From contig JACPPQ010000003.1 of assembly GCA_016190925.1 (NCBI GenBank), positions 1,531 to 65,530 on the forward strand: a stretch of 64,000 nucleotides of DNA, read 5' to 3'. The translations under genes and the position numbers were made by a program. Positions 46,989 to 61,555 of this stretch are shown here, in pieces. Each line of letters starts with the position of its first letter. Positions within the stretch are counted from its first letter, which is position 1. Below the pieces are notes generated by a model that searched no databases, was not told where the DNA came from, and saw nothing but the letters and a program-made list of their open reading frames with translations. Source of the stretch: Chloroflexota bacterium. Its GTDB lineage: Bacteria; Chloroflexota; Dehalococcoidia; Dehalococcoidales; JACPPQ01.

Positions 46989-48611
46989 ATGGCGCAGATG
47001 AAACGAAGTGAAGAGTTGACTGAGAGAAAGAAGGAGTTCCGCACTACCGTGGGCGGGACAGTGGTCAAGCGGGTATACCTTTCTTCTGATTTAGCTGGCC
47101 TCAAAGAGGAAGACACCGGTCTTCCAGGCGAATATCCCTTTACCAGGCATATTATGCCCACCGGCTACCGCGGCAGGCTGTGGACCATGCGCCAGTATGC
47201 CGGCTTCGGCACGGTGGAAGAGACCAACGAGCGCTACAAGTTCCTCTACAGGCAGGGACAGACCGGCTTCAGCGTGGCTTTTCAGCTTCCTACCCAGGAA
47301 GGCTACGATTCCGACCATCCGCTGGCAGCCGGGGAGGTAGGCAAATGCGGGGTTGCCGTAGACTCGTTGCAGGACATGGAGCAGCTCTGGGAGGGCATCC
47401 CGCTGGGACAGGTTAGCACTTCGATGACCATCAACGCCACAGCGCCTATCCTGCTTGCCATGTACATCGCCTGCGCGGAAAAACAGGGAATTGACCGCAG
47501 CAAACTGGAAGGCACTGTCCAGAATGATATTCTGAAAGAGTATATCGCCAGGAACACCTATATTTTCGGGCCGGCGGCATCCATGCGGCTGGTCACCGAT
47601 GTTTGCGCCTACTGCGCCCGCGAGATGCCCAAATGGAACTCCATCAGCATCAGCGGCTACCACATGCGCGAGGCGGGAGCCACCGCCGACCAGGAAGCTG
47701 GTTTTACTCTGGCCAACGGCATCGCCTACGTCAAGGCCATGCTCGATAAGGGGATGCAGGTCGACTCTTTTGCGCCACGTTTCTCGTTCTTTTTTGCGGC
47801 GTATACCAACGTCCTGGAGGAGGTTGCCAAGTACCGTGCTTTACGGCGCATGTGGGCCAGAATAATGAAGGAACGCTTCGGCGCTCAGAATCCCAAATCG
47901 TTGATGCTGCGTTACCATGTCCAGACTGACGGTTTCACCCTGACCAGGCAGCAGCCTCTTAACAATACGGTGAGGGTGGCGTTGCAGGCGCTGGCGGCGG
48001 TGCTCGGCGGGTGCCAATCTTTGCACACCAACTCCTTCGATGAAGCCCTGGCTCTCCCCGGAGAAACGGCGGTGCAGGTGGCACTGAGGACGCAGCAAAT
48101 TATCGCCTATGAAAGCGGTGTTGCCGATACCGTCGACCCTCTTGGAGGTTCCTATTTTGTTGAAACACTCACGAATCAGATAGAGAGCGCTGCTTCGAAA
48201 TACATCGCTGAAATAGACAAAATGGGCGGCGCTCTGAAGGCTATCGAACAGGGATATATCCAGAAGGAGATTGCCCGTTCCGCTTACGAGTACCAGAAAG
48301 CCGTAGACTCCGGCGGGCAGGTGGTTGTCGGTGTCAACAAGTTTGCCACTCATGACGAGGAAGAAACCGAGACCCTGGAGATTGGCGCTGAGGTTGAGCA
48401 GAAACAAATCAAGCGCTTGAAGGCATTAAAGCATAGTCGTGACAACCAGAAGGTCAAAGAAGTTCTGGCAAGGGTGCGGGATGTGGCGTCTGGCAACGAA
48501 AACATTATGCCGGCACTGGTAGAGGCCGCGAAAGTCTATGCCACAGTTGGAGAAATAAGCGATGCTCTTCGGAGTGTCTTCGGGGAATACCGGGAGCCGA
48601 ACATTTTATAG
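46989..48611 (+). CDS. Methylmalonyl-CoA mutase, catalytic (large) subunit
   Basis: [57 protein letters not shown]. 540 aa with no B12 domain, so the enzyme is of the split type. Confidence 0.85.
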
Positions 48612-48838
48612 CGGTTAGCAGGTAGCGGGTAGCTAAATAATGTCTTAGAAATTCGTTGCTTAAACCAAGCCTTTCGAGAGTATGAAAATTACCCGGATTG
48701 TCATTCCTGCGGAAGCAGGAATCCAGGTCGGGTGGATGGGATGGGTTCTCTGACTTATCGCATGAGAAGTATAAAGAAATGTATTTCAGACATGACATCA
48801 GGGCAGAAGGAAGGGCTGATAGCTAAAAGCTGAAAGCT
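48612..48838. repeat. Repeat-filled spacer between the mutase subunit genes
   Basis: gcggttagcaggtagcgggtagc. 48700-48726 is GTCATTCCTGC-GGAA-GCAGGAATCCAG. gctgatagctaaaagctgaaagct lies just before the start codon. Confidence 0.75.
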
Positions 48839-49252
48839 ATGAATAAAAAAATCCGTGTACTAATAGCCAAGCCCGGCCTTGACGGTCATGACCGTGGAGC
48901 CAAGGTGGTTGCCAGCGGCCTGCGTGATGCCGGCATGGAGGTCATCTACCTCGGCCTGCGGCTGACGCCGGAGCAGATAGCCGAGGCCGCGCTTCAGGAA
49001 GACGTGGACGTGGTGGGACTGGCCTGTCTCTCCGGCGCCCACATGTCCTTGTTTCCCAGGACGGTTGAGCTTGTCAGGCAAAGGGATAACGATATCCTGG
49101 TCATCGGCGGAGGGATAATTCCCAAAAAGGACATACCGGCATTGAAAAAAGCGGGCATCGCCGAGGTCTTCGGGCCGGGCACAACGCTGGATGAAATTGC
49201 GGAGTTCATTAAGAAAGCGCTGGAGAAGAATGCGGATGATAACCAGGATTAA
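48839..49252 (+). CDS. Methylmalonyl-CoA mutase, cobalamin-binding (small) subunit
   Basis: [21 protein letters not shown] (DxHxxG B12-binding motif). 137 aa. Confidence 0.85.
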
Positions 49253-49637
49253 CCACATCGGGATAGCGGTAAACAGCATTTCAGATGTGCTCAAGCTCTA
49301 CACCGAGGCGCTCGGATTAAAGCTCAAGGACATCGAAATTGTGGAAGAGCAGAAGGTGCGCACTGCTATCATACCGGTGGGCGAAAGCAAAATCGAGCTG
49401 CTGGAATCGACCGACCCGGAAGGCGTGATTGCCAAATTCATCGAGAAAAAGGGCGAAGGACTTCATCACCTTGCTTTGGAGGTCGACAATATCGAAGCTG
49501 CCATGGCGAATATCGAGAAACAGGGCGTTCAGCTTGTTGATAAGAAGCCGAGGAAAGGCGTTGAAAATACCAGCATCGCCTTCTTGCATCCTAAGGGAAC
49601 GAGGGCATTAATCGAACTGGTGGAGACAGGGAAGTAG
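49236..49637 (+). CDS. mce: Methylmalonyl-CoA epimerase (VOC/glyoxalase fold)
   Basis: Start placed at ATG 49236 ([12 protein letters not shown]). [11 protein letters not shown]. Overlaps the end of the upstream gene. Confidence 0.8.
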
Positions 49638-49638
49638 C

Positions 49639-51219
49639 ATGGAAGACGAGAAGCACATCAAAGACAGACTGCTGGCCGACCTGCATGCCCAGCGAGAAAA
49701 AATACTGGCGATGGGCGGCAGGGACAGGCTTCAAAAGCGGAAAGAGCAGGGCCGGCTCTCCGCCCGCGAGCGCATAGAGTCGCTGCTGGACAAGGACACT
49801 TTCTGCGAGATTGGCATGTTCGCCAGAAACAGGGGCCAGGCATTCGGCATGGACCGGATAGAAATTCCGGCGGATGCGGCAATCACCGGCTATGGCAAAA
49901 TCGATGGCAGAAAGGTCTATGTTTTTTCGCAGGACTTCACCAGCGGCGGCGGGACCATCTCAGAGGTGCACGCCCAGAAGCTCTGCCGTGTCATTGACGC
50001 CGCCATGAAGGACGGTTGCCCCATTGTTGGAATATTCGATTCGGGTGGGGCCAGGATTCAGGACGGCGTGGATGCCCTCTCCGGCTGCGGGCAAATGTTC
50101 TACAGGAACACCATGGCGTCCGGCGTGGTGCCGCAAATATGCGCCATCATCGGGCCGTGCGCCGGGGCTTCGGTCTATTCCCCGGCGCTGATGGACTTCA
50201 TCTTTGCCGTAAAAAACCTGAGCTATGCCTTTATCACCGGCCCGAGGGTAGTCGAGGCCGTGCTGGGCAAAGAGGTCAGCGAGGAGGAGCTTGGCGGCGC
50301 GATGGTGGCCCAGGTGAAGGCGGGCGTGGTCTCGCGCACCGAGGACAGCGAACACGAATGCCTCAAGGCTATCAAAGAGCTGCTTACCTACCTGCCATCG
50401 AGCAACCGTGAGAAACCGCAGCAGGTGGATTGGGGAGATTGCCCTAACCGCACCGATAGCACCCTTTTTGAAATCGTGCCAGCCAGTCCGAGCAAGCCCT
50501 ACGATATGCACCGCATGATTCATCGAGTTTTCGACCAGAGAGCAGACGGCAAGGACAACTACTTCGAGCTATTTCCCAAGTTCGCTACCAACGTAATCAC
50601 TTGCTTTTGCCGCTTGAACGGCTGGACGGTGGGCGTCATCGCCAACCAGCCGATGTCGAAGGCGGGCTGCCTGGACATCGATGCCTGCGATAAGGCTTCC
50701 CGCTTCATCCGCTTCTGCGATGCCTTCAATATCCCGGTGGTGAACTTGGTGGACGTGCCCGGCTATCTTCCGGGGTCGAAGCAGGAGTGGGGCGGCATAA
50801 TACGGCACGGGGCCAAGATGCTCTATGCCTACTCCGAGGCCACCGTGCCCAAGCTAACCCTTACCATCAGGAAGGCCTACGGCGGCTCTTACCTGGGGAT
50901 GTGCAGCAAGGACCTGGGAGCCGACTCCGTGCTGTGCTGGCCGACCACCGAGCTTGCCGTAATGGGGCCGGAGGGAGCGGCGAACATCATCTTTCGCAAG
51001 GAGATTGAAAAGTCGCCCGAGCCGGACAAACTCCTCGATGAAAAGATAAAGGAATATCGCAGCATCTTTGCCAATCCCTACCGCGCTGCCTGGCACCTGC
51101 ACATCGATGACGTGATTGACCCGGCTGAGACCCGCCCGAGGCTCATCAGGGCGCTGGAGATGGCACTGGACAAGCAGCAGCAGAGGCCGGTCAGAAAACA
51201 CGGCATCATGCCGGTGTGA
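49639..51219 (+). CDS. Acyl-CoA carboxylase carboxyltransferase subunit (propionyl-CoA carboxylase beta / methylmalonyl-CoA carboxyltransferase family)
   Basis: GGRDRLQKRKEQGRLSARERI, GYGKIDGRKVYVFSQDFT, DVPGYLPGSKQEWGGIIRHGAKMLYAY. Confidence 0.85.
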   Translation: MEDEKHIKDRLLADLHAQREKILAMGGRDRLQKRKEQGRLSARERIESLLDKDTFCEIGMFARNRGQAFGMDRIEIPADAAITGYGKIDGRKVYVFSQDFTSGGGTISEVHAQKLCRVIDAAMKDGCPIVGIFDSGGARIQDGVDALSGCGQMFYRNTMASGVVPQICAIIGPCAGASVYSPALMDFIFAVKNLSYAFITGPRVVEAVLGKEVSEEELGGAMVAQVKAGVVSRTEDSEHECLKAIKELLTYLPSSNREKPQQVDWGDCPNRTDSTLFEIVPASPSKPYDMHRMIHRVFDQRADGKDNYFELFPKFATNVITCFCRLNGWTVGVIANQPMSKAGCLDIDACDKASRFIRFCDAFNIPVVNLVDVPGYLPGSKQEWGGIIRHGAKMLYAYSEATVPKLTLTIRKAYGGSYLGMCSKDLGADSVLCWPTTELAVMGPEGAANIIFRKEIEKSPEPDKLLDEKIKEYRSIFANPYRAAWHLHIDDVIDPAETRPRLIRALEMALDKQQQRPVRKHGIMPV

Positions 51220-51425
51220 GAGTTGGTTGAGTTCTTAGAATTTGTTTGGTTTGTTGAGTTTTTAGAGTTCTTTGAGTTAGGATGATACCTTCTATGTCTT
51301 TACGAGTCCTTCATCGGAAGGATTCGGCTGAAGGACGACGAAGCAATCTCAATCATGCTCAGTGTCATTCCAGTCCTTCAGGGAAGGAGAATCCAGAGGG
51401 TGGATGAGGCGGGGCTGGGTTCTTG
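51220..51425. repeat. Repeat-filled spacer
   Basis: Reiterated ttgagtt/tttggtt motif at 51228-51280. gtccttcatcggaagga hairpin. cgacgaagcaatctc module. 51364-51396 is GTCATTCCAG-TCCTTC-AGGG-AAGGA-GAATCCAG. Confidence 0.75.
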
Positions 51426-51638
51426 CTAATCATCTGACACCTCATAACTCAAGGCACCGCTGGGGCAGGTGTCTATGACCCGTATAATCTCTTCTATATC
51501 GGCACCCTCAAGATTCACCCAGGGTCGCTTGTCTGGGTCGAAGACATCATGAAGCTGACCGTGACACATACCGGCGTACATGCACTTGTCGCTATCCCAC
51601 AAGACCGTGAGCTTGCCTTTGGTGTATGTGCGCTTCAT
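51426..51638 (-). CDS. Small Fe-S protein (divergent 4Fe-4S mono-cluster, Fer4_19-like)
   Basis: LTVLWDSDKCMYAGMCHGQLHDVFDPDKRPWVNLEGA...IDTCPSGALSYE matches the pattern I recall for this family. Confidence 0.55.
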   Translation of the reverse strand: MKRTYTKGKLTVLWDSDKCMYAGMCHGQLHDVFDPDKRPWVNLEGADIEEIIRVIDTCPSGALSYEVSDD

Positions 51639-51653
51639 AATTTTATTCTAACA

Positions 51654-52067
51654 CTAACGTATTTTGGTTTTCTTTAACCTGGTTTTCCCACCTTCATCCC
51701 GCCCGACAGCGCGGGAGAGCGTAAACACCAGGAACTGGTTAAGGCTCACGCCCTCTTTCTCAGCCATCCGGTTAAGCTTACGGTGCAAGCTCTTCGGCAC
51801 ACGGACGTTAAACTTGCCGCTGTATTCTTCCTGTTTTTCTCCCGGCAAGGGAATATCCTGTCCGTCTTCGTATGCCACTTCAAGCCACATTCGACGGGCG
51901 ATTTCTATCATCTTGTGGGCTTCGGTTATTGATTCCCCCTGTGCGAAGCATCCGGGAAGGTCCTCAATTTGAATAAAATATCCACCCTCGGGAGCTTCCT
52001 CAATAGTGACAGGGTATTTAAGACTGAGATAATACTCAAGCGGTTGTCTCTTGACTGTCGTTACCAT
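51654..52067 (-). CDS. hicB: HicB family antitoxin with a C-terminal ribbon-helix-helix domain
   Basis: YPVTIEEAPEGGYFIQIEDLPGCFAQGESITEA and FNVRVPKSLHRKLNRMAEKEGVSLNQFLV. Confidence 0.8.
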   Translation of the reverse strand: MVTTVKRQPLEYYLSLKYPVTIEEAPEGGYFIQIEDLPGCFAQGESITEAHKMIEIARRMWLEVAYEDGQDIPLPGEKQEEYSGKFNVRVPKSLHRKLNRMAEKEGVSLNQFLVFTLSRAVGRDEGGKTRLKKTKIR

Positions 52068-52068
52068 G

Positions 52069-52308
52069 CTATCCCTCCAACTCCAGAACTTTAATGATGT
52101 TTTTAGCGTAGGATGTATTTACGTATTTCGTATTCTTGGGAACTACTACCGTGATCGGGCGAGTTCCCTTTTTATGGTAGGTCCTGTGACTCCCACCGCC
52201 CTTGCGCCACTCATATCCATAGGCAGTGAGAAGCCTATCGCAGTCCTCAACCGTGATATGCATCCTGTCGGTGAGAAACTTCTTGACTAACTTCTCATCA
52301 CCCTTCAC
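52069..52308 (-). CDS. hicA: HicA family mRNA interferase toxin
   Basis: LLTAYGYEWRKGGGSHRTYHKKG. 79 aa. The stop lies 1 nt before the hicB start. Confidence 0.8.
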   Translation of the reverse strand: MKGDEKLVKKFLTDRMHITVEDCDRLLTAYGYEWRKGGGSHRTYHKKGTRPITVVVPKNTKYVNTSYAKNIIKVLELEG

Positions 52309-52454
52309 GGTTTCATAGTACCATATATAGTGGCATATATCAACTGAAGAAGAAGCATTTCAAAATGGTGTTTGAGAGGAAGGGGCTAATACTGGATTTG
52401 CAGCGGGTTACTCACAGAGCAAGTTGGACGAAAGAAAGAACTTTTAGGCTAGAC

Positions 52455-52483
52455 TTTAGCATTGCTGAGTACGGGAGTATAAT
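52455..52483 (+). promoter_or_regulatory. Putative promoter giving a near-leaderless transcript for ORF 52490
   Basis: TTTAGC (52455-52460), 17 nt spacer, TATAAT (52478-52483). The ATG lies 7 nt further on with no Shine-Dalgarno sequence. Confidence 0.3.
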
Positions 52484-52489
52484 AATCTT

Positions 52490-53371
52490 ATGGAAGAGAA
52501 GCTTTTTAGCAATGATATAACCCCTGCTGACGACTTATATCGCATCATTCGTGACGACGAGAGATATGTTGAGGAAAAATCCCACATGGAGAATTTGTGG
52601 AAGACTTATCAACCTTACGCTGACAGAGATTACCTAAAGAAAATAACAGAGGACTTTGACGCCCGTTTTTGGGAGATGTATTTGACCTGCACCTTGGTTC
52701 ATTATTCCTTTAATGTTGTCCCAAAGCAAATGCCTAAAGGTCCTGATATAAAGATAGACCACGGTTCAACAACCATATGGATAGAAGCTGTTACACCAAC
52801 AATCGGAGACTCAAGCAAACCTGACAGTGTTCCTGATCTTAAAATGGGTATGACTCAGCAGATTCCAGACGACCAAATAATCCTCAGGTATACAAATGAT
52901 ATATCCGAAAAACATAAAAAATATCGCAAATATTTGGGTGATATTATCAGGGACGGGGATTGCTACGTAATCGCCTTAAATGGCTGTAAAACTCGGCATG
53001 GTAAGATCAATCCACCAAGAATTGTTCGTTCTGTTCTACCCATAGGTAGGCCAATAGGCACTTTAGATATAAAATCTAAAATATTGAATATGCAAAACCC
53101 ATACATGCCATCTTTGAAAAAGGCTAGCGGCAGCCTGGTCGAGACAGATATATTTACCAAACAGGAATATAATAATATCAGTGCCGTAATGTTCTCCAAT
53201 GTCGATGTTTGCAATCCAACTTCAACCATGGGCGATGATTTTATCATCGTTCGCAATCCTTTAGCATCAAAACAACTACCTGTTGATTTCCCCAATGTCG
53301 GCTTGGAATATACAGCCGAATTATCCCAAAATGGAATTACTTTGAACCGAAGGGAACTGATACAGCACTAA
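52490..53371 (+). CDS. Hypothetical protein (293 aa), possible PD-(D/E)xK-like nuclease fold
   Basis: GPDIKIDHGSTTIWIEAVTP resembles a PD...ExK-type core, but the Lys position is not conserved. No family recognised. AT-rich. Confidence 0.45.
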   Translation: MEEKLFSNDITPADDLYRIIRDDERYVEEKSHMENLWKTYQPYADRDYLKKITEDFDARFWEMYLTCTLVHYSFNVVPKQMPKGPDIKIDHGSTTIWIEAVTPTIGDSSKPDSVPDLKMGMTQQIPDDQIILRYTNDISEKHKKYRKYLGDIIRDGDCYVIALNGCKTRHGKINPPRIVRSVLPIGRPIGTLDIKSKILNMQNPYMPSLKKASGSLVETDIFTKQEYNNISAVMFSNVDVCNPTSTMGDDFIIVRNPLASKQLPVDFPNVGLEYTAELSQNGITLNRRELIQH

Positions 53372-53440
53372 AGGGCAAAAGCCCCTGCTTAAAAAACCCT
53401 TCAAGTTGGCGTTGCGATCCGTAAGTAGCAAACAAATAAA

Positions 53441-53459
53441 GCACCGTTTTTCGCGGTGC
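53441..53459 (-). terminator. Rho-independent terminator candidate for the hdrA operon (also closes ORF 52490 on the + strand)
   Basis: The minus strand reads GCACCG-CGAAAAA-CGGTGC followed by TTTATTTGTTTG. Confidence 0.45.
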
Positions 53460-53509
53460 CTCTTCAAATCCAATTGGTAGCCCACATTGGATTCGAACAG
53501 CCTCTGTCC

Positions 53510-53653
53510 CTACTTCTTCTCCCCCACCCGCCTCACGCTATTGCTCCGGCACTTGGGGCAAGCCCGCTCCACCTTGATGAGGTCGTCGGAAGTGGTGTAC
53601 TCATGGCCGCAGCGCATGCACTTTAGCTTGGACTGTTTCTCGGTGGGGGTCAT
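53510..53653 (-). CDS. Zinc-ribbon miniprotein (47 aa), not in the ORF track
   Basis: My own translation is MTPTEKQSKLKCMRCGHEYTTSDDLIKVERACPKCRSNSVRRVGEKK (CxxC...CxxC). Its ATG shares one base with the hdrA TAA (TAATG at 53651-53655). Confidence 0.5.
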   Translation of the reverse strand: MTPTEKQSKLKCMRCGHEYTTSDDLIKVERACPKCRSNSVRRVGEKK

Positions 53654-56067
53654 TATGCCACCTTCTTCTTGTCTGCGGCTTCCAATGCCTTTCGTGTCTG
53701 CTCAATCTCCTCCGGTGTTACCTTTGAACGTCTCTCGTCAAGCTCAGCCATGACCCTGGCAAACTTCTGACCCTCGGCGGCGCTCATCCACTCCAGTTGG
53801 AGTCGCTCAGGCCGGATGCCCAGTCGCTCCAGCCTGCTCCACAGCCGGTCCATGCGCTTCACAGTCGAGCGGTTGGCGGCCATGTAGTGGCAATCGGCCA
53901 GGTGGCAACCGGAGACCAGCACAACAGGAGCGCCCAGCTTGAAAGCCTGCATCACAAACTTCTCGTTGACGCGCGCGCTGCACATGGTGCGGATGATACG
54001 GATGTTGGGTGGGTATTGCAGTCGGGACGTTCCGGTGAGGTCGGCGGCGGCATAGGAGCACCAGTTGCAGGCAAAGACAATGGCCGTGTCCTGCGGGTTT
54101 TCCGCCAGCGCGGCCTCGATTTGAGCCATGTATTGCGCATCTTCGAAATGCCTCAGGCTGATAGCCCCGAAGGCGCACTCCGCCGCGCAGGAGCCGCATC
54201 CGGCACACATCGCTTCGGTGACGTGGGCGGCAATCTTATTCTGTTTGCTGGCGCTGATAGCGCTGTAGGGACAGACCTGGACGCAAAGCTCGCAGAACGT
54301 ACATTTCTCTTTGTCGACAACAGCTATGGCCGCGTCCAGCTTGATTTTATCCGAGCTGAGGATTACCCCAGCCCTCGCGGCGGCGGCGCTGGCCTGGGTC
54401 ACGCTGTCCTTGATGTCTTTCGGCGATTCCACGCATCCGGCCAGAAACACGCCGCGCGTCGGGGCATCCACCGGCATCAGCTTGGGATGCGATTCCGCCA
54501 GGAAGCCATCGCTGGTCTGTGATAGTGAAAGCAGGTGACGGATTTTATCGCCGTCCTTTCGTGCTTCCAGCCCGACTGCCAGCACCACCATGTCAAGCTC
54601 GTGCTCCTCGATACACCCGGCGGTGGTGTTTTCCACCTTGAGGCGGAGGCTGCCGGTAGACGGGTCTTCCTCGATGTGCTCCGGCAGGCCGCGCACGTAT
54701 CTCACACCTTCCCGCTTGCTGCGCTCGTACAGGTCTTCGAAGCCCTTCCCGAAGGCGCGAATGTCGATGTAAAACACAGTTATCTCGGTGTCCGGGTAGT
54801 GTTCCTTGATGAGCAGGCTGTTCTTGATGGTAACCATGCAGCAGATGTTGCTGCAGTAGGGATTTCCGCGATTATGCGACCTCGACCCAACGCACTGGAT
54901 AAACCCGATGCGCTTCGGAGCCTTCGTATCGCCCGGTCTGACCAGGTGGCCGCCGGTAGGGCCTCCGGCGTTTATCAGTCGCTCAAGCTCCAGGCTGGTG
55001 ACCACGTTCTGGAAGCGGGTGTAGCCGTACTCGTCCAGGCGGGTGGGGTCATAGACGTCCATGCCGGTAGCGACTACCACCGCTCCCACCTTGAGCTCTA
55101 CGATTTCATCCCGCATGTCGAAGTCGATGCAGCGTTTTTGGCACTTCTCCACGCACTTGTTGCAGGTGATGACGTCTTTGCTCAGGCAGTCTGCCATATT
55201 GATGACGTAGGAGGAGGGAATCGACTGCGGGAAGGGGATATAGATGGCGTTCCTGGTAGCCAGGCCGACCTCGTATTCGTTGTACTTGTTTACGGGGCAG
55301 ACGGTGGCGCATTCACCGCAGGCGGTGCAATCGGCTTCCCGGACGTAACGGGCCTTGCGGCGCACCTTAACATTGAAGTTGCCGACATATCCTGAGACGT
55401 CCTCGACTTCGCTCAGGGTCATCAGCTTGATTCTGGGATGTCGACCGACATCCTTCATTTTAGGGCCGAGTATTCATATCGAACAGTCCATGGTGGGAAA
55501 GGTCTTATCGAGCTGCGCCATCACGCCGCCGATGCTCGGTTGCTTCTCCACCAGGTAGACCATGTGTTCCGCATTGGCCAGGTCAAGGGATGCCTGTATT
55601 CCGGCTATGCCTCCCCCGATGACCAGTACTGCATCCGTGACGGGAATCTCGTTCTCTTTTTGAGGTTTGAGCAGGCGCGCCCTTGCCACCGCTATCCTCA
55701 CGATGTCTTTGGCTTTCTCCGTTGCCGCCTTTCGGTCGGTGGAGTGCACCCAGCTGCACTGCTCCCTGATATTCGCCATATCAACCAGGTAGGGGTTCAG
55801 TCCCTCCTCCGCCACGCAGGTGCGGAATGTCGGCTCATGGAGCCGCGGCGAACACGAGGCAACCACCACCCGGTTGAGGTTGAGTTCCCGTATTTTCTTC
55901 TTAATCTCCTGCTGGCCGGGGTCGGCGCAAGTATAGCGGTTCACCGTTGAAACAACCACGTTTTCCAACCCCTCTGCGTACCGCCGCACCTCTCCGCAGT
56001 CCAGGAACCCAGCGATGTTCAGCCCGCACTCGCAGACAAATACACCAATCCTTATCTCATCAGCCAT
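53653..56067 (-). CDS. hdrA: Heterodisulfide reductase subunit A fused to an MvhD-like domain; selenocysteine-containing (UGA at 55474-55476 read as Sec)
   Basis: ORFs 55474-56067 and 53653-55458 share one frame and are separated only by TGA plus 5 sense codons. The joined sequence LDKTFPTMDCSI-U-ILGPKMKDVGRHPRIKLMT matches the HdrA motif DKTFPTxDCSxCILxPKM. The C-terminus NWCSYAAADL...VSGCHLADCHY is MvhD-like. Confidence 0.8.
55436..55453 (-). promoter_or_regulatory. Candidate bacterial SECIS hairpin
   Basis: The minus-strand RNA GGAUGUC-GGUC-GACAUCC (7-bp stem, GGUC loop) begins 20 nt after the in-frame UGA. Confidence 0.55.
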
Positions 56068-56104
56068 TTTTAGTGTCCTCTATATCCTTCCATCTTGCAA
56101 GAAA

Positions 56105-56490
56105 TCAACCAATTCGGGAGAAATAACCAATTACCAAGCTCCAAGCACCAAACAAATCTCAATATTCAATTGTCAATAAACAAACACTTTTGGGTTCTTT
56201 TCTCGAGCAGAATCTTTAGCATACCTAGAAAATACCCTTTTACCATTTCGATTCTTCAGCCGAAGGAGAATCCAGACTCCACTTCCCCACTGGATTCCCG
56301 CCTTCGCGGGAATGACAGTTGGTGTGACTTTTTCATTGTTTCGTGGGTCCTTCATCCGAAGGATGACAAATTGTTTGGTTATTTTTTGGCCTGCCCTGAG
56401 CTTGCCGAAGGGTTATTGTATCTTGATTATTAGCTTGCTTTCAGCTTTTGTTTTTCACTCTTTTACACAAGCTGATCGCTGACTGCTGAT
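56105..56490. repeat. Repeat-filled spacer between the HdrCB-like gene and hdrA
   Basis: 56251-56275 is ATTCTTCAGCCGAAGGAGAATCCAG and 56290-56318 is CTGGATTCCCGCCTTCGCGGGAATGACAG. 56347-56367 is the gtccttcatccgaaggatgac hairpin. The region ends with gctgatcgctgactgctgatagct. Confidence 0.75.
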
Positions 56491-56492
56491 AG

Positions 56493-57629
56493 CTAATCCA
56501 CCAGCGCCTTCGCCGCAAAGCTGGTAATATCTTCAATTTCGATATTCAATTCTTTCTCGTTCTTCATGGCGCATTTCAGGTGAATCTGGCATTTGGGACA
56601 TGAAGTCAGCAAGAGCCCTGCTCCGGTGGCTTTAGCCTCCCGCAAACGCTCTGCCTGTATCTGCTTATTGATTGTGCCGCAGTTCATCCACGCCTGCGTG
56701 CCGCAGCAAAGTGCGCTCGTTCGATTATGGGCCATCTCCGTCATTTTAAGGCCGGGTATGGCGGTAATCGCTGCCCGCGGCTGGTCATAGATGCCGGAGA
56801 ACCTGCCCAGACGGCAAGGGTCGTGGTAGGTCACTTTCTTCTTCGACGTGCGGAATTTTAGCTTGCCATCCGCTATAAAGTCGGCCAGGACCTGCGAAAT
56901 ATGCACCACCTCGAAATCAAGACTTCCCGCGTAACGAGGATATTCCTCCTTGAGTGTCAAATAGCACTCCGGGCAGGTAGTCACCACCCGCTTTGCCTTC
57001 GATTCCTTTAGTGCTCTAATGTTGTGCTCAGCCAGGCGCGCAAAGCCCTTCGTGTCTCCGGCCCAGAGCAAGTCGTGTCCGCAGCAGCGTTCGTTGGGCA
57101 GCACGGCAGGTTCGATACCCAGTGTATTGAACAGCTTGATAGCGCCTCTCGCGGCATCCAGCGTCCTGACCTCCAGGTCTGAAAACAGCACATCGAAGTA
57201 GGGCTGGCATCCGACGAAGAAAAGGACATCGGACTGAGCAGAGACCTTCAGGTTTTTGCCTACCCAGTCCAGCCGGTTCTGGCTCAGGTTATTGGCGGTC
57301 ATAATATGTGTCAAAGCTCTCAAAGCTCCGCCGTGGGTGCACTGGCCGGTGTTGCCCAGGGTGTGGGCCTCCGCTCGTAGCGACTTCATAAGCTCGGTGT
57401 AGCGCACGCCTGACTGGCACCTTTCTTCACACATGGAGCAGGTGATGCACGACCACAGCGCGCTGTTCTGGAGCATTTCATTGCCATTCTTGCTAAGCGT
57501 GCTGGACACCACCTTCCGCGGCGAGTACGAGGGGTCGTACTTCGAGATAGGGCAGGCAACGGTGCACCTGCCGCAGTCGAGGCAGGAATACGCCCGCGTT
57601 TCTGTAATTATCTGGTGGATTTCAGACAA
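56493..57629 (-). CDS. HdrC/HdrB fusion-type Fe-S protein (HdrD-like, two CCG domains)
   Basis: TTG start with GGAAGGAA upstream. Ferredoxin motifs CLDCGRCTVACP and CITCSMCEERC. CCG motifs NERCCGHDL and SALCCGTQ. Confidence 0.75.
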   Translation of the reverse strand: MSEIHQIITETRAYSCLDCGRCTVACPISKYDPSYSPRKVVSSTLSKNGNEMLQNSALWSCITCSMCEERCQSGVRYTELMKSLRAEAHTLGNTGQCTHGGALRALTHIMTANNLSQNRLDWVGKNLKVSAQSDVLFFVGCQPYFDVLFSDLEVRTLDAARGAIKLFNTLGIEPAVLPNERCCGHDLLWAGDTKGFARLAEHNIRALKESKAKRVVTTCPECYLTLKEEYPRYAGSLDFEVVHISQVLADFIADGKLKFRTSKKKVTYHDPCRLGRFSGIYDQPRAAITAIPGLKMTEMAHNRTSALCCGTQAWMNCGTINKQIQAERLREAKATGAGLLLTSCPKCQIHLKCAMKNEKELNIEIEDITSFAAKALVD

Positions 57630-57643
57630 AAAAGGTTCCTTCC

Positions 57644-60600
57644 TTAAGCCTTCGGTTTCACCATATCATTGTTTAAAGACGCTGGTGTGGAGTTGGTCTT
57701 TCTGATGCGCTTCGCAAAATCGGAAACCTGCCTGGTGAAGACCTCATCGCCACCGAGCGGCACCTCAATCAAAGACAGCCTGCCGGGCTCGATTCCAAGC
57801 AGGTGCAGCATCTTCCCCGCCTGTTCAAATAGCTCCATCGCCCTGGTCATACCTTCGTCATAATGGCATTCCTTCGGCGGACAGCCCAGGAGCATCACCC
57901 CATCTGTGCCCAGTTGAAACGCTTTCAGAACAAGACCCAGGTGCACCCGCCCCAGGCAGGGAAGCCTGACCAGTTTGATGCTGGCCGGGTACTCGGTACC
58001 GTGAAGTCCGGCAAGCTCCACCCCGGTGTAGGCGCTCCAGTTGCAGACAAAACCCACAATGCGTGGTTCAAAATCCAGATTGCTTTCATTTATACTACGG
58101 CATTCCGGCTCGGATGAAATTGCCTCAAGCGAGGCCGTTATTTGTGCATCAGTATTGTCATATTGGCTGAGTGCCCCTGATGGGCAATTGGCCACACAGA
58201 GCCCGCAACCGCGGCACAGGCCCTCGTCAACCTCGGCTATTTTTACTCCTTTCTCTTGTTCAGAAACCTTGATAGCGAGGAACGGGCAGACGGATTCGCA
58301 TGTGCCGCAGCCGCGACACCTCATTCGGTCAACGGCAGCGATGGTCTCTACTATCTCCATTTCTCCGCTGTTCAGCAGTATGGATGCCTTGCTGGCTGCC
58401 GCCGAACCCTGGATGACGGCTTCCACGGTATCCTCCGTTGCCTCGCCGGTCCCGCAGAGGAATATCCCCGGCAAACGGCTGCCCGCAGGCTCGGACAGGA
58501 GTTTTTCGTAACCGTTTCTGATGGCCTTCTGCAAAAATACCGGCAGCTTCGATGTCCTGCCGTAGAGCTCGCTGATGTCCAGGATAACCACGCCCGCCCT
58601 GAAGGAGTGCTCCTTTTCACCTTGAATGACGGTGGCATTATAGCCCCCCGCAGTAACGCTCAGGCTGGCAACCTGCGCTCCGTAAAGCACTGTTGCCCCC
58701 TTCTTTGCCAGTTCCTTTTGCAGGTATCTTTTTAGAGTGTCAGCCTGGCACAGAGAGCCTTCGCACGGGAGCTCAAAGTGGCTGTTCACCAGGATGGTCT
58801 CGAAGCCCTGCGCCGCCATATCTGCTGCCGCCTGCATACCGCTCAGCCCCCTGCCCAATACCAGGATGCCCTTTCCCAGGCCGAGTGTTCTCTTTCTGTG
58901 CGGCTGGCTTTGCCTGGCGCGTGCCACCCCTGCTGCAATGAGGCTTATAGCTTTGGATGTGGCTTTATCGGGCCTGCTGCGGTGCGCCCAGGCGCAGTGC
59001 TCCCTTATGTTTACGAACTCGTAAGAGATGCCATCGGCTTCCTTGCTGTTCAACAGATTCTGCTTACAACGGACGCGGCGGTCGGAGCAGCTGAAACATA
59101 TCTGGTCGAGATTGCAGCAAGAGCAAGCCGCCAGAACAACGTGTGTAAGGTTTTGCTCCTTCGCCACCTTCTTTATCTCGATGGCCGCATCGGAAGTGCA
59201 GGCGTAGCCAATCTCTCCGCAATACACCACCCCTTCGAGTCCTTTGCAATAGCTGACCGTTTCTCTGATATTAACCACCTCGCTGATGCTGCCTCCGCAG
59301 CAACACACGCAGACGCCTATTTTCGTTTCTCGATTGCCCAGTACGACTTCCAGTTCAGCCGGAGCTTTTCTGGTTTCCCTTTTAACTTCACCGGTGTCAG
59401 CGGAACGCACCGCCATGTCCACCATTACCCTGGCGGCCACAGCGGATGCCTCGGAAAGGACTCCGGTTTCCGGAGAGGGCGGAATCCAGTAGATGCCAGG
59501 ACGCCTGTTCACAGGCTGCGATTCTCCGCTATCATCCTTCAATTTGACCGAGGCGTGTTTCGGGACAGGGTTTTCGGTAGCTATAATGGCCTCAACATCG
59601 AGTTCGACCATCTCCGCTTTTGCACTGTGGTCTATCGCCCTCAGTTCACAGGCACGCTGGCATTCCAGGCAGGTGCTGCAACCGGCGCAATTCAGGCATC
59701 GTTTTGCTTCTTTCACCGCCATTTCGGCGTCGAACCCAAGCTCTACCTCTTCGAAATTGCCGACCCTATCCTTGTAACGCAGCAAAGGCATCTGTTGACG
59801 TTCCACCGGGGGGATATATGTCTGTTGGAGGTCTACCTCTACAGGAGTGAGTTTACCCTGACGTTCTGTGATTTGCTCGCCACGCAGGTAAGCATCGATG
59901 GAAACTGCCGCACGGCGTCCGGCGGCGATGGCGTTAATCAGGGGCCCGGGCCTTCCGGTGGCGTCCCCCGCAGCGAATACTCCGGGAACGCCCGTGGTCA
60001 TAGTGAGCGGGTCGACTACTACGTGTCTCTTGCCTTCGGTTAATGTGGAGTCTCCTTCGAGGAAGGAAAGGTCGGGTCTCTGCCCTACGGCGACTATCAC
60101 GGTATCCACGTCCATCACAAACTCGGAGCCCTCAATGGGTATGGGAGTGCGCCGTCCGCTCTTGTCCGGCTCTCCCAGCCTCATGCGGGTACACTCGATG
60201 CCTGTCACCGCTCCATCACTGCCGTGGATTCTGACCGGCGCCACCAGGTACTCGATTTTTACCCCTTCTTCCTGTGCCTCGGCAACCTCCTCGGGGTCGG
60301 CGGGCATTTCCTCGAGGCTGCGGCGGTAGAGAATGCTAACGTTCTCACAGCCAAGGCGGATGGCGGCGCGCGCCGAATCGACGGCGGTATATCCCCCTCC
60401 GATGACCGCAACTCTCCGGCCGATTGTAACCGGCTGCTTGAGGTTCAGAGCCTTCAGGAAATTGACGCCGTTGATTACTCCTGAGAGGGTCTCTCCAGGG
60501 ACGTTCAATCTCTGGTTTGTATGGGCGCCCGTGGTGATGAGTATCGCTTCATAGCCCTGTTTGCGAAGGTCGGCCAGCGTCAGGTCTTTGCCGATGGGCG

Positions 60601-61555
60601 TCGAGGTCCTGATTTCGATGCCCAGCTTCACAATATCATTGATGTCTGCCATGCGGACCTCGCGCGGCAAACGAAAACGGGGCATTCCGACAGCTATCAT
60701 GCCGCCAGCGACGGGCAGGGCTTCAAAAACGGTTGACTTGTGGCCCAGCCTGGCCAGGTCGCGGGCTGCGGTCAGTCCGGCTGGTCCCCCTCCGATGATG
60801 GCTACACGAGGAGGGCCGACAGGCTTGCGCGCTCCGTTCGATGTCTGAGCCCGTCTCAGGGAGAAACCGGTGGAGTTATTATCAGCGATGAACCTTTTTA
60901 AGTCACAGATAGACACCGGCTGGTCTATCTTGCCGCGGGTGCACTTGCTTTCACAGGGACGGGTGCAAATCCTTCCCAGTACACGCGGGAAGGGGACTGC
61001 CTCCGTTACCAGGTCCAGCGCTTCGGCGAACTTGCCTTTGGAGACCAGTGCCACGTACCCCTGAACATTGATTCCGGCCGGGCAGGCGGCGGTGCACGGA
61101 GCAACGCCGTTCTTCTCCAGCGTATAAGCCGAAGGCTGGGACTTCAATCCGAAGGCGGGGAGATGTATTGCTTTGTGTGCATTGAGGCCGTCGGGCTGGA
61201 GGCTGATATTCACCGGGCACTCTCGCTCACACCGTCCGCAGCTTGTGCAAAGGTCGCTGTTTACATAACCGGGCTGCTTCAGGATTGTGGCTTTGAAGTT
61301 GCCCCTCTTGCCTTTGACCTGCAATACGTCCGCACTGGTAACTACGTTGATGTTGCGGTGACTTGCGGCTCTCAGGATTTTGGGAATGTAGCGCAGCGTC
61401 GCTGCCTCGCTGGCAGGCTGGCTGCCTGCTGTTGAGGTTGGATGAAGGGCAGGCGACTCCTCAACCAGGGTGACTTCGATTCCTGCATCAGCAAGGTCGA
61501 GGGCAGCCTGCACGCCTTCGATGTTTCCGCCTATTACCAGCGCTCTCCTGCTCAT
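57644..61555 (-). CDS. Giant (1303 aa) multidomain flavo-Fe-S protein: HdrA-like + GltD/NfnB-like + HdrA-like + MvhD-like (HdrL-like)
   Basis: N-terminal ALVIGGNIEGVQAALDLADAG. GltD-like CTAACPAGINVQGY...VAIIGGGPAGLTAARDL...GVFAAGDA. Cys-rich VCVCCCGGSI...AACSCC. Ferredoxin motifs CRGCGTCESVCP and CRGCGLCVANCP. C-terminal VCNWSAYTGVEL...LLGCPPKECHY. Confidence 0.75.
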   Translation of the reverse strand: MSRRALVIGGNIEGVQAALDLADAGIEVTLVEESPALHPTSTAGSQPASEAATLRYIPKILRAASHRNINVVTSADVLQVKGKRGNFKATILKQPGYVNSDLCTSCGRCERECPVNISLQPDGLNAHKAIHLPAFGLKSQPSAYTLEKNGVAPCTAACPAGINVQGYVALVSKGKFAEALDLVTEAVPFPRVLGRICTRPCESKCTRGKIDQPVSICDLKRFIADNNSTGFSLRRAQTSNGARKPVGPPRVAIIGGGPAGLTAARDLARLGHKSTVFEALPVAGGMIAVGMPRFRLPREVRMADINDIVKLGIEIRTSTPIGKDLTLADLRKQGYEAILITTGAHTNQRLNVPGETLSGVINGVNFLKALNLKQPVTIGRRVAVIGGGYTAVDSARAAIRLGCENVSILYRRSLEEMPADPEEVAEAQEEGVKIEYLVAPVRIHGSDGAVTGIECTRMRLGEPDKSGRRTPIPIEGSEFVMDVDTVIVAVGQRPDLSFLEGDSTLTEGKRHVVVDPLTMTTGVPGVFAAGDATGRPGPLINAIAAGRRAAVSIDAYLRGEQITERQGKLTPVEVDLQQTYIPPVERQQMPLLRYKDRVGNFEEVELGFDAEMAVKEAKRCLNCAGCSTCLECQRACELRAIDHSAKAEMVELDVEAIIATENPVPKHASVKLKDDSGESQPVNRRPGIYWIPPSPETGVLSEASAVAARVMVDMAVRSADTGEVKRETRKAPAELEVVLGNRETKIGVCVCCCGGSISEVVNIRETVSYCKGLEGVVYCGEIGYACTSDAAIEIKKVAKEQNLTHVVLAACSCCNLDQICFSCSDRRVRCKQNLLNSKEADGISYEFVNIREHCAWAHRSRPDKATSKAISLIAAGVARARQSQPHRKRTLGLGKGILVLGRGLSGMQAAADMAAQGFETILVNSHFELPCEGSLCQADTLKRYLQKELAKKGATVLYGAQVASLSVTAGGYNATVIQGEKEHSFRAGVVILDISELYGRTSKLPVFLQKAIRNGYEKLLSEPAGSRLPGIFLCGTGEATEDTVEAVIQGSAAASKASILLNSGEMEIVETIAAVDRMRCRGCGTCESVCPFLAIKVSEQEKGVKIAEVDEGLCRGCGLCVANCPSGALSQYDNTDAQITASLEAISSEPECRSINESNLDFEPRIVGFVCNWSAYTGVELAGLHGTEYPASIKLVRLPCLGRVHLGLVLKAFQLGTDGVMLLGCPPKECHYDEGMTRAMELFEQAGKMLHLLGIEPGRLSLIEVPLGGDEVFTRQVSDFAKRIRKTNSTPASLNNDMVKPKA

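Follow-up and report, generated by a model that had tools for sequence, protein, structure and literature searches.

A probable selenocysteine-containing HdrA2-MvhD fusion encoded by two open reading frames that join across an in-frame UGA

Two open reading frames adjoin on the minus strand of the window, by which we mean the whole 64-kb stretch of DNA analysed here, and as split at a single TGA codon they encode 197 and 601 residues. The question raised by this locus is whether they represent two genes or one gene in which the UGA is decoded as an amino acid. Our analysis, which is based on sequence comparison, points to one gene, hdrA2, encoding an 804-residue HdrA-MvhD fusion flavoprotein in which the UGA at 55476-55474 is very probably decoded as selenocysteine (Sec, residue 198).

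The complete hdrA2 coding sequence (53653..56067, minus strand) starts at ATG 56067, contains a sole in-frame TGA at 55476-55474 and stops at the TAA at 53655-53653. The first ORF (55474..56067, minus strand) ends ...DCSI and accounts for the N-terminal Fe-S domain together with the opening part of the FAD domain. Across the TGA the codons read ...LDKTFPTMDCSI, TGA, ATA CTC GGC CCT AAA (ILGPK) and then ATG 55458, and the frame continues without a shift to the TAA, giving one UGA read through and 804 residues plus stop. The first-pass annotation had proposed that the two ORFs join in frame across the TGA with five sense codons between them to form an 804-aa protein; both the frame and the coordinates were reproduced, and our translation agrees. 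A putative Shine-Dalgarno-like GAGGA (56076..56080, minus strand) can be read off the sequence 8 nt before ATG 56067.

The joined protein matches a solved HdrA, 5ODC_A, at E 2e-240 in one alignment spanning residues 3-654, and the chains 8RVU, 9SFI and 7BKB at E values of 1e-197 or lower. Pfam places Pyr_redox_2, FAD and Fer4 domains on it, and the NCBIfam model for HdrA2 (NF040770) scores 1186.4 bits over residues 6-789, above a cut-off of 1100 that is reached by the joined protein only. The proposed selenocysteine codon (55474..55476, minus strand) aligns exactly to Cys197 of 5ODC_A in a stretch that is gapless around the TGA, and a break there would fall 13 residues beyond the FAD-binding region matched by Pfam FAD_oxidored (residues 147-184). 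The placement of the TGA on the conserved HdrA cysteine, on which the first-pass annotation had staked its reading, is thus upheld, and the motif it had cited, DCSxCILxPKM, is found in the solved HdrA chains. Within the DCSIU motif the partner Cys is residue 195, and the predicted Sec198 of D-C195-S-I-U198 occupies the position of Cys197 in the solved HdrA. The HdrA of M. maripaludis is reported to have Sec197 at the equivalent position, where it forms half of a Cys-Sec (selenylsulfide) pair beside the bifurcating FAD (PMC13518236). Residues E362 and K415 of the joined protein are identical to the aligned E356 and K409 of 5ODC, which have been tied to flavin-based electron bifurcation (FBEB) (PMC12054007). 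At the C-terminus, the MvhD-like domain that had been suggested earlier is confirmed as an MvhD/FlpD domain (residues 663-779; 53731..54081, minus strand; PF02662, E 8.5e-46); it is all-Cys, without a second UGA, and is matched by PDB MvhD/VhuD chains at E 1e-37.

For comparison, 80 related genome loci were fetched, these being nearest relatives (62-71% identity) selected by peptide patterns drawn from the protein itself. At the codon in question 77 of them have TGA and three have TGT, a proportion that is not the Sec frequency of all HdrA2 because of this way of choosing the loci. Judged by record titles, the loci come from at least a dozen groups of phylum rank, and the Sec-type relatives are all MAGs or SAGs. 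The best 120 database homologues have Cys at this position in every case. A 78-sequence Sec-type alignment was used for the codon and stem counts that follow. In a rough neighbor-joining tree, which is only indicative, the window sequence and locus L001 adjoin the Cys clade, and the Sec form of locus L024 is nested within it.

Immediately downstream of the TGA, a 20-nt spacer (55454..55473, minus strand), encoding ILGPKM plus the first two bases of the next codon, leads to a hairpin (55436..55453, minus strand) with a 7-bp stem, GGAUGUC/GACAUCC, and the apical loop GGUC (55443-55446). The first-pass annotation had described a SECIS-like hairpin 20 nt after the UGA; its position, stem and loop were all reproduced, with GGATGTC-GGTC-GACATCC beginning exactly 20 nt past the TGA, and essentially the same hairpin occurs in 77/80 loci. 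The same TGA in 77 of 80 diverged loci together with the same hairpin is well beyond chance. Folded alone, the hairpin has an energy of -9.4 kcal/mol; in a 60-nt context the fold z-score against shuffles is -2.25, which is modest by itself. The bacterial SECIS (bSECIS) model calls for an apical loop of 3-9 nt with G in the first two loop positions, an upper stem of 4-16 bp, 16-37 nt from UGA to loop and an MFE of at most -7.5 kcal/mol (PMC13188914), and with its 4-nt GGUC loop, 7-bp stem, spacing of 27 nt and energy of -9.4 kcal/mol the hairpin falls within every one of these limits.

Conservation of the hairpin across the Sec-type alignment is close to complete. RNAalifold returned the six inner pairs as the sole structure, and these hold in 78/78 Sec forms apart from one C-A mismatch in locus L008; the outermost G-C pair is kept in 72 of 77 distinct sequences and broken in five. 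Overall, 98.9% of alignment cells are paired in the stem, and the loop is GGUC in 77/78 sequences. Five stem pairs are invariant and the sixth covaries (UA 49, CG 17, UG 11, CA 1; n=78), a Val/Ala change being coupled to a synonymous Arg change. There is a single covarying pair because the conserved amino acids fix most of the stem bases. The comparative signature is TGA, 20 nt, then GGATGYC-GGTC-GRCATCC, and a search of the window and the related loci for perfect hairpins with a GGTC loop recovered hdrA copies only, plus three unrelated CATCCA hairpins. Positions 53000-57000 matched neither a SECIS nor any other family in Rfam, whether gathering thresholds were applied or E was relaxed to 10, a null result that the 18-nt length of the hairpin makes uninformative. 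These data support the assignment of the hairpin as a SECIS.

Could the TGA be a real stop, with the locus representing a pseudogene, a sequencing error or a natural split into 197-aa and 601-aa polypeptides that assemble? Gene callers would indeed report two ORFs, an ATG sits five codons past the TGA, and neither tRNA-Sec (selC) nor selA, selB or selD was found within the 64-kb window, where ARAGORN detected no tRNA, as was also the case on 60 related loci. However, the TGA is shared by 77/80 loci whose protein sequences are as much as 41% different, which neither a sequencing error nor a nonsense mutation of recent origin could explain. The stretch from TGA to ATG also behaves as coding sequence: across 78 sequences the residues ILGPK never change, whereas their third codon positions do so freely (GGN 1.91 bits, CCN 1.87 bits), indicating purifying selection at the amino-acid level with synonymous sites unconstrained, and these codons are therefore translated. 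As for the internal ATG 55458, no Shine-Dalgarno-like sequence was seen ahead of it, as judged by eye, and in the alignment to solved HdrA it is the conserved Met of the PKM motif. A break lying directly after the FAD-binding match, within a gapless alignment, likewise argues against two separate proteins. With ILGPK retained and the HdrA2 score reached only jointly, the earlier claim of one polypeptide rather than two is supported, and we regard a genuine stop as very improbable.

If the UGA is translated, a different amino acid could still be inserted: a suppressor or near-cognate tRNA, or a reassigned code, might supply Cys, Trp or Gly, with the hairpin merely stimulating read-through. Downstream structures do stimulate stop-codon read-through in other systems, which counts in favor of this explanation. 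Reassignment is contradicted by the window itself, where TGA ends 16 of 40 family-supported ORFs and the genetic code is therefore standard. In addition, the position is precisely that of Sec in methanogen HdrA and of Cys in Cys forms, the hairpin fits the SelB-type SECIS model with its G-G/U loop start and shares the GGUC loop of E. coli fdhF, and the same element is conserved over many phyla; we consider that non-Sec read-through has only a slight chance of being correct. A scan for further TGA-joined ORF pairs in the window gave off-frame or gene-boundary artefacts and no second selenoprotein. Separately, a candidate Sec codon at the HdrL/MvhD junction of Cys-type relatives was rejected, the stops being TGA or TAA with inconsistent frame and spacing among loci. 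The remaining concern is that the hairpin is not a SECIS at all and owes its conservation, as a by-product, to codon preference or to the peptide M-D-V-G-R-H-P, which is conserved in both Sec and Cys forms and fixes 12 of the 18 hairpin bases. Seven Cys-type genes with the identical peptide speak against this, as they encode MMDVGRHP with other codons (GAC, GTG/GTA, GGA/GGC/GGG, CGT/CGC/AGG, CAC) that make the stem impossible, and the hairpin is absent from all seven. Among the 78 Sec-type genes, by contrast, GAT, GTC/GCC, GGT and CAT are each used in 78/78 sequences, and third-position entropy in codons +7 to +13 is 0.33 bit versus 1.40 elsewhere. Synonymous sites are near-maximally variable in the invariant Gly and Pro codons that lie five to six codons before the hairpin, and the sole variable stem position covaries with its partner, so that a by-product origin is hard to credit.

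Selenocysteine insertion at a SECIS thus remains our preferred reading, and a mechanism can be proposed on this basis. At the UGA, the downstream hairpin, 20 nt away with 27 nt from UGA to loop, would bind SelB-GTP-Sec-tRNASec, and the hairpin-bound SelB would, as in E. coli fdhF, allow Sec insertion to replace termination. The genes surrounding hdrA2 suggest likely partners for the product. Upstream lies an HdrD/GlpC-like Fe-S protein (56493..57629, minus strand; PF02754 CCG, E 3.4e-30) with a dicluster ferredoxin and two CCG domains, the equivalent of an HdrC-HdrB fusion. In 38/80 loci a homologue of this protein ends about 200 nt or less before hdrA begins, in 11 others a full-length copy lies farther upstream, and Cys-type loci carry one as well; synteny is thus kept in most relatives. 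Beyond it is a 1303-aa HdrL-like protein (57644..61555, minus strand) in which Pfam identifies a GltD/NfnB-like NAD(P)H module, a partial HdrA region, a ferredoxin domain and MvhD, with NCBIfam PRK12771 matching at 2.3e-151 alongside partial HdrA2 matches. The hdrA2 product would be partnered by an HdrD/GlpC-like CCG protein and an NAD(P)H-binding HdrL-like protein, in a complex that would be soluble and perform flavin-based bifurcation or confurcation between ferredoxin, NAD(P)H and a disulfide-type acceptor. CoM-S-S-CoB is unlikely to be the substrate here; no methanogenesis genes are present in the window. On the other side, a 47-aa CxxC...CxxC zinc-ribbon ORF (53510..53653, minus strand) overlaps the hdrA2 stop with its start (TAATG) and, by tblastn, is kept downstream of hdrA in at least 57 related loci, in all but two of them within about 300 nt. 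A consensus scan identified a terminator-like hairpin and T-run (53438..53462, minus strand) as the probable operon end.

The immediate consequence is an annotation fix, in which ORFs of 197 and 601 residues become one 804-residue selenoprotein whose HdrA2 identity is recognisable only when they are joined. By implication, the organism, probably a Chloroflexota/Dehalococcoidia-like anaerobe, would decode selenocysteine and need selenium for a central electron-bifurcating module. The 78-sequence signature can be reused to locate and mend split hdrA2 genes in metagenomes; existing knowledge of HdrA and of Sec decoding is unchanged. A broader evolutionary reading is that the Sec form, with its near-frozen SECIS (GGAUGYC-GGUC-GRCAUCC at +20), may be the original state of bacterial HdrA2-MvhD and also the most widely distributed one, across at least a dozen phyla of uncultivated anaerobes, the Chloroflexota Cys forms having arisen by repeated Sec-to-Cys conversion. 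This is a tentative proposal that we find plausible rather than probable. If it is true, the selenium dependence of HdrA2-type bifurcation in these lineages would be systematically under-counted in protein catalogues, because gene callers split Sec genes.

How does this locus compare with known systems? The SECIS of E. coli fdhF is also a coding-sequence hairpin immediately 3' of the UGA, and its sequence, GGTTGCA-GGTC-TGCACC, confirms the GGUC apical loop that the first-pass annotation had named as common to both. The stem here differs in that all 7 bp are perfectly paired, no U is bulged out and the sequence is unrelated; 27 nt separate the UGA from the loop, compared with 18 nt in fdhF. In E. 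coli, a bulged U in the upper stem and the 18-nt distance from UGA to loop serve as determinants for SelB; neither of these fdhF-type features is found here, and the GGUC loop is. By analogy, the hairpin would work like the fdhF SECIS without being the same form.

Among HdrA proteins, the Sec-HdrA of Methanococcales (M. jannaschii; M. maripaludis Sec197) belongs to the same family, with a fold collinear with this protein over about 650 residues and Sec at the same site, the second Cys of DCSxC by the FAD. In the archaeal genes the SECIS is of archaeal type, lies in the 3'-UTR and works with an archaeal SelB (PMC13188914), whereas here a bacterial-type SECIS hairpin lies inside the coding sequence; the Methanococcales enzymes also have a separate VhuD/MvhD, which is fused here. 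Such an MvhD fusion is seen in archaeal type Ia HdrA (PMC12054007), and HdrA2 (NF040770; archaeal HdrA2B2C2) has the identical domain architecture, the score here being above the NCBI curated cut-off. Characterised HdrA2 proteins, like the best 120 database proteins, are Cys forms, in contrast to the Sec form described here, and in place of HdrB2C2 the partner at this locus is the fused HdrD-like protein with the HdrL-like NAD(P)H module. By 2006 at the latest, HdrA was listed among the selenoprotein families of bacteria and archaea (PMC1794560). Bacterial Sec-HdrA genes (PMC1794560; D. autotrophicum HdrA1/A2, PMC2702500) share with this one the in-frame UGA, the coding-region SECIS and clustering with MvhD/FrhD and a GlpC/HdrD-like Fe-S protein. 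They differ in that here hdrA alone has Sec, the GlpC-like and MvhD parts being Cys forms, in that no hydrogenase is present, and in that the nearest relatives here are Chloroflexota/Dehalococcoidia MAGs. The gene is real but ordinary, one more member of a selenoprotein family that is well known and whose genes are routinely split by gene callers.

The hdrA2 reading frame on the minus strand starts at ATG 56067, with GAGGA 8 nt upstream, and its codons spell ...LDKTFPTMDCSI before an in-frame TGA, read directly from the sequence at 55476-55474. This triplet is followed by ATA CTC GGC CCT AAA (ILGPK) and then by ATG 55458, the head of the second ORF, from which the frame runs unbroken to TAA 53655-53653, giving a joined product of 804 residues. 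The hairpin GGATGTC-GGTC-GACATCC (55453-55436, minus strand) begins exactly 20 nt past the TGA. All coordinates and sequences of the first-pass annotation (frame, TGA, ILGPK, hairpin and 804-aa length) were verified. The observation is confirmed and the selenoprotein interpretation is supported; we consider it very probable that the UGA encodes selenocysteine (Sec) via the downstream hairpin.

For the alignment with structure chains, Cys was substituted at the UGA position. Residues 3-654 align in one stretch to HdrA of Methanothermococcus thermolithotrophicus (5ODC_A, E 2e-240), and four further solved HdrA sequences also align to the joined protein. In 5ODC_A the UGA aligns with Cys197 (DKTFPTNDCSIC197ILAPKM), which bears out its proposed placement on a conserved HdrA Cys. 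The MvhD-like C-terminus noted earlier was recovered as an MvhD/FlpD domain at residues 663-779 (PF02662, E 8.5e-46), and solved MvhD/VhuD chains match as well. Residues E356 and K409 (5ODC numbering), singled out for flavin-based bifurcation (PMC12054007), are conserved in the 5ODC_A alignment as E362 and K415. Against the NCBIfam model NF040770 ('CoB-CoM heterodisulfide reductase HdrA2', cut-off 1100 bits), the joined protein reaches 1186 bits and covers all 777 profile positions (1-777), a span that neither ORF fragment could cover by itself.

Scanning one genome per GTDB species gave 80 related loci at 62-71% identity, with record titles naming Dehalococcoidia, Anaerolineae, Zixibacteria, Ignavibacteria, KSB1, Eisenbacteria, Marinimicrobia/Fidelibacterota, Calditrichota, Desulfobacteria, Planctomycetes, Holophagae and WOR-3, among others. 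The aligned codon is TGA in 77 loci and TGT in three, a proportion that describes the nearest relatives and not the frequency of Sec among all HdrA2, as the loci were recruited by peptide patterns of this protein. In all 78 Sec-type sequences (the window and the 77 loci) the ILGPK following the TGA is unchanged, with third codon positions near maximal variability (GGN 1.91 bits, CCN 1.87 bits), indicating translated sequence under protein-level selection. The best 120 full-length matches in the protein database (65-68% identity, labelled Chloroflexota/Dehalococcoidia 'HdrA2') are all Cys forms, as expected given that gene callers are unable to yield full-length Sec forms. The codons flanking the UGA are also biased: the preceding Ile codon (55477-55479) is ATA in 71 of the 78 Sec forms, and the following residue (55471-55473) is always Ile in these, so that an A always comes directly after the UGA, while Val occupies this position in 116 of 120 Cys-type proteins. 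Such a codon context may reflect a requirement for Sec insertion.

The hairpin itself is constrained at the RNA level. Among the Sec-type sequences, mean third-position entropy is 0.33 bit at codons +7 to +13, which form the hairpin, versus 1.40 bit at the other 93 codons examined, and GAT, GT/CC, GGT and CAT are each present in 78/78. RNAalifold returned the hairpin as the sole structure in this alignment. Five of the seven stem pairs do not vary; at pair 6, 49 sequences have U-A, 17 have C-G, 11 have U-G and one is mismatched, a covariation in which a Val/Ala change is offset by a synonymous Arg change. The apical loop is GGUC in 77 and GGUA in one. Seven Cys-type genes encoding the same MMDVGRHP use GAC, GTG/GTA, GGA/GGC/GGG, CGT/CGC/AGG and CAC, and the stem cannot form in any of them; the constraint therefore goes with the TGA. 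The published bacterial SECIS model specifies a loop of 3-9 nt with G in its first two positions, a stem of 4-16 bp, a UGA-to-loop distance of 16-37 nt and an MFE of at most -7.5 kcal/mol (PMC13188914). With its 4-nt GGUC loop, 7-bp stem, distance of 27 nt and -9.4 kcal/mol, the window hairpin falls within all these bounds. The identity with the E. coli fdhF loop noted earlier also holds: fdhF has TGA, 18 nt, and then GGTC within GGTTGCA-GGTC-TGCACC. The two elements share the GGUC apical loop, but the window hairpin has no bulged U and its loop lies 9 nt farther from the UGA.

Other explanations of the TGA fare poorly against these data. It serves as the ordinary terminator of 16 of the 40 window ORFs with family support, so the standard code applies here, and no second TGA-joined gene was found in the window. 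The TGA is retained in proteins that differ by as much as 41%, which rules out both a sequencing error and a recent nonsense mutation. Were the gene naturally split into two polypeptides, translation would have to restart at the downstream ATG, and the ILGPK pattern would not be expected. The split is further contradicted by the absence of a Shine-Dalgarno-like sequence before the internal ATG (judged by eye), and by a break that would fall 13 residues past the FAD-binding match, inside a gapless alignment to solved HdrA. Read-through with some other amino acid is unlikely, given a SECIS of the SelB type and a position at which methanogens have Sec. Neither a tRNA nor, among the window ORFs, SelA, SelB or SelD was found in the 64 kb.

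To compare Sec with Cys forms, p-distances and a neighbor-joining tree (no outgroup or support values) were computed for 78 Sec and 47 Cys forms. Sec forms are far more diverse (mean p-distance 0.305 versus 0.181). On this unrooted tree one clade takes in 46 of the 47 Cys forms (the exception is locus L058), with the window and locus L001 as its neighbours. Tentatively, these results agree with an older Sec state and Sec-to-Cys conversions within Chloroflexota. Locus L024 (QIGA01000109.1, 3592-3651), a Sec form with an intact hairpin, is nested within the Chloroflexota Cys clade and shares 83% identity with a Cys protein (p-distance 0.17; P0063 was among those compared), which suggests recent or repeated interchange there.

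The minus-strand operon opens with 2-oxoacid:ferredoxin oxidoreductase subunits (63988-61552), followed by a 1303-aa HdrL-like protein (57644-61555) comprising a GltD/NfnB-type NAD(P)H module, a partial HdrA, a ferredoxin and MvhD, then an HdrD/GlpC-like CCG protein gene, the Sec-HdrA2-MvhD gene, a zinc-ribbon ORF and a terminator-like hairpin. The zinc-ribbon ORF (53510-53653; 47 aa, CxxC...CxxC, MTPTEKQSKLKCMRCGHEYTTSDDLIKVERACPKCRSNSVRRVGEKK), below the 60-aa minimum of the ORF list, overlaps the hdrA2 stop with its start (TAATG). At least 57 of the 80 loci have it 3' of hdrA (tblastn), so it probably encodes a conserved small subunit of the complex or a factor for its assembly. Cys-type loci share the HdrL-MvhD-HdrD-HdrA2 gene order. 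MvhD is fused to the C-terminus of the window HdrL-like protein; in four Cys-type relatives (L082-L085, 1-1800) adjoining genes encode HdrL (~1180 aa) and MvhD (105-150 aa) separately. A Sec codon at these junctions was rejected, as they are ordinary stops. Of the 80 loci, 54 have the CCG gene 5' of hdrA, and in 38 of these it ends no more than ~200 nt from the hdrA start, versus an unusually long 425 nt in the window (56068-56492, GC 0.41). Several short hairpins, whose loops are UUCG or GAAG, lie in this spacer, and its motifs TGGATTCTCCTTC and ATCCTTCSGATGAAGGAC recur in the intergenic region 51225-51430 (three matches, 0.11 expected); they resemble dispersed REP-like elements of small size.

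Directly downstream of the operon is a low-GC island (51654-53371; GC 0.38-0.44 versus 0.57-0.61 in hdrA2) carrying HicB (Pfam), an adjoining 79-aa ORF that reads like a candidate HicA, and, on the plus strand, a 293-aa ORF for which Pfam gave no match at E up to 1e-5. A mobile or defence module has probably been inserted here. Past it, 2.4 kb downstream of the operon, a methylmalonyl-CoA cluster (46989-51219, plus strand) encodes mutase large and B12-binding subunits, a glyoxalase-fold epimerase-like protein and a carboxyltransferase, a propionate/succinate pathway module. Bases 1-36800 hold a large polysaccharide/glycan biosynthesis cluster (XrtA/PEP-CTERM-type deacetylase, glycosyltransferases and amidotransferase, two WecB epimerases, the heptose pathway GmhA/B and HldE, an LpxD-like acyltransferase and a B12-binding radical-SAM HpnJ-like protein); housekeeping genes complete the window.

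By analogy with HdrABC-MvhD complexes, we infer that the operon products would form a soluble module that bifurcates or confurcates electrons by a flavin-based mechanism and links ferredoxin, NAD(P)H and some disulfide-type acceptor. In M. maripaludis HdrA, a 2026 cryo-EM study reported a Cys-Sec197 selenylsulfide in the density between cluster A3 and FAD; a thiol/selenol relay was proposed, with no settled role claimed (PMC13518236). HdrA of Methanococcales and Methanopyrus is a long-established selenoprotein family (PMC2933860), and a 2006 catalogue lists 16 bacterial Sec-HdrA genes, mainly from Deltaproteobacteria and Clostridia and often beside GlpC and FrhD/MvhD (PMC1794560). Truncation of Sec-hdrA by gene predictors is likewise documented (PMC12054007). 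The window gene thus adds one member to a family already known in archaea and bacteria, and will not surprise a specialist. Its form is an HdrA-MvhD (HdrA2) fusion in a Chloroflexota-like genome and, whereas Desulfobacterium autotrophicum has Sec forms of HdrA, HdrL, HdrD and MvhD (PMC2702500), here Sec is confined to HdrA.
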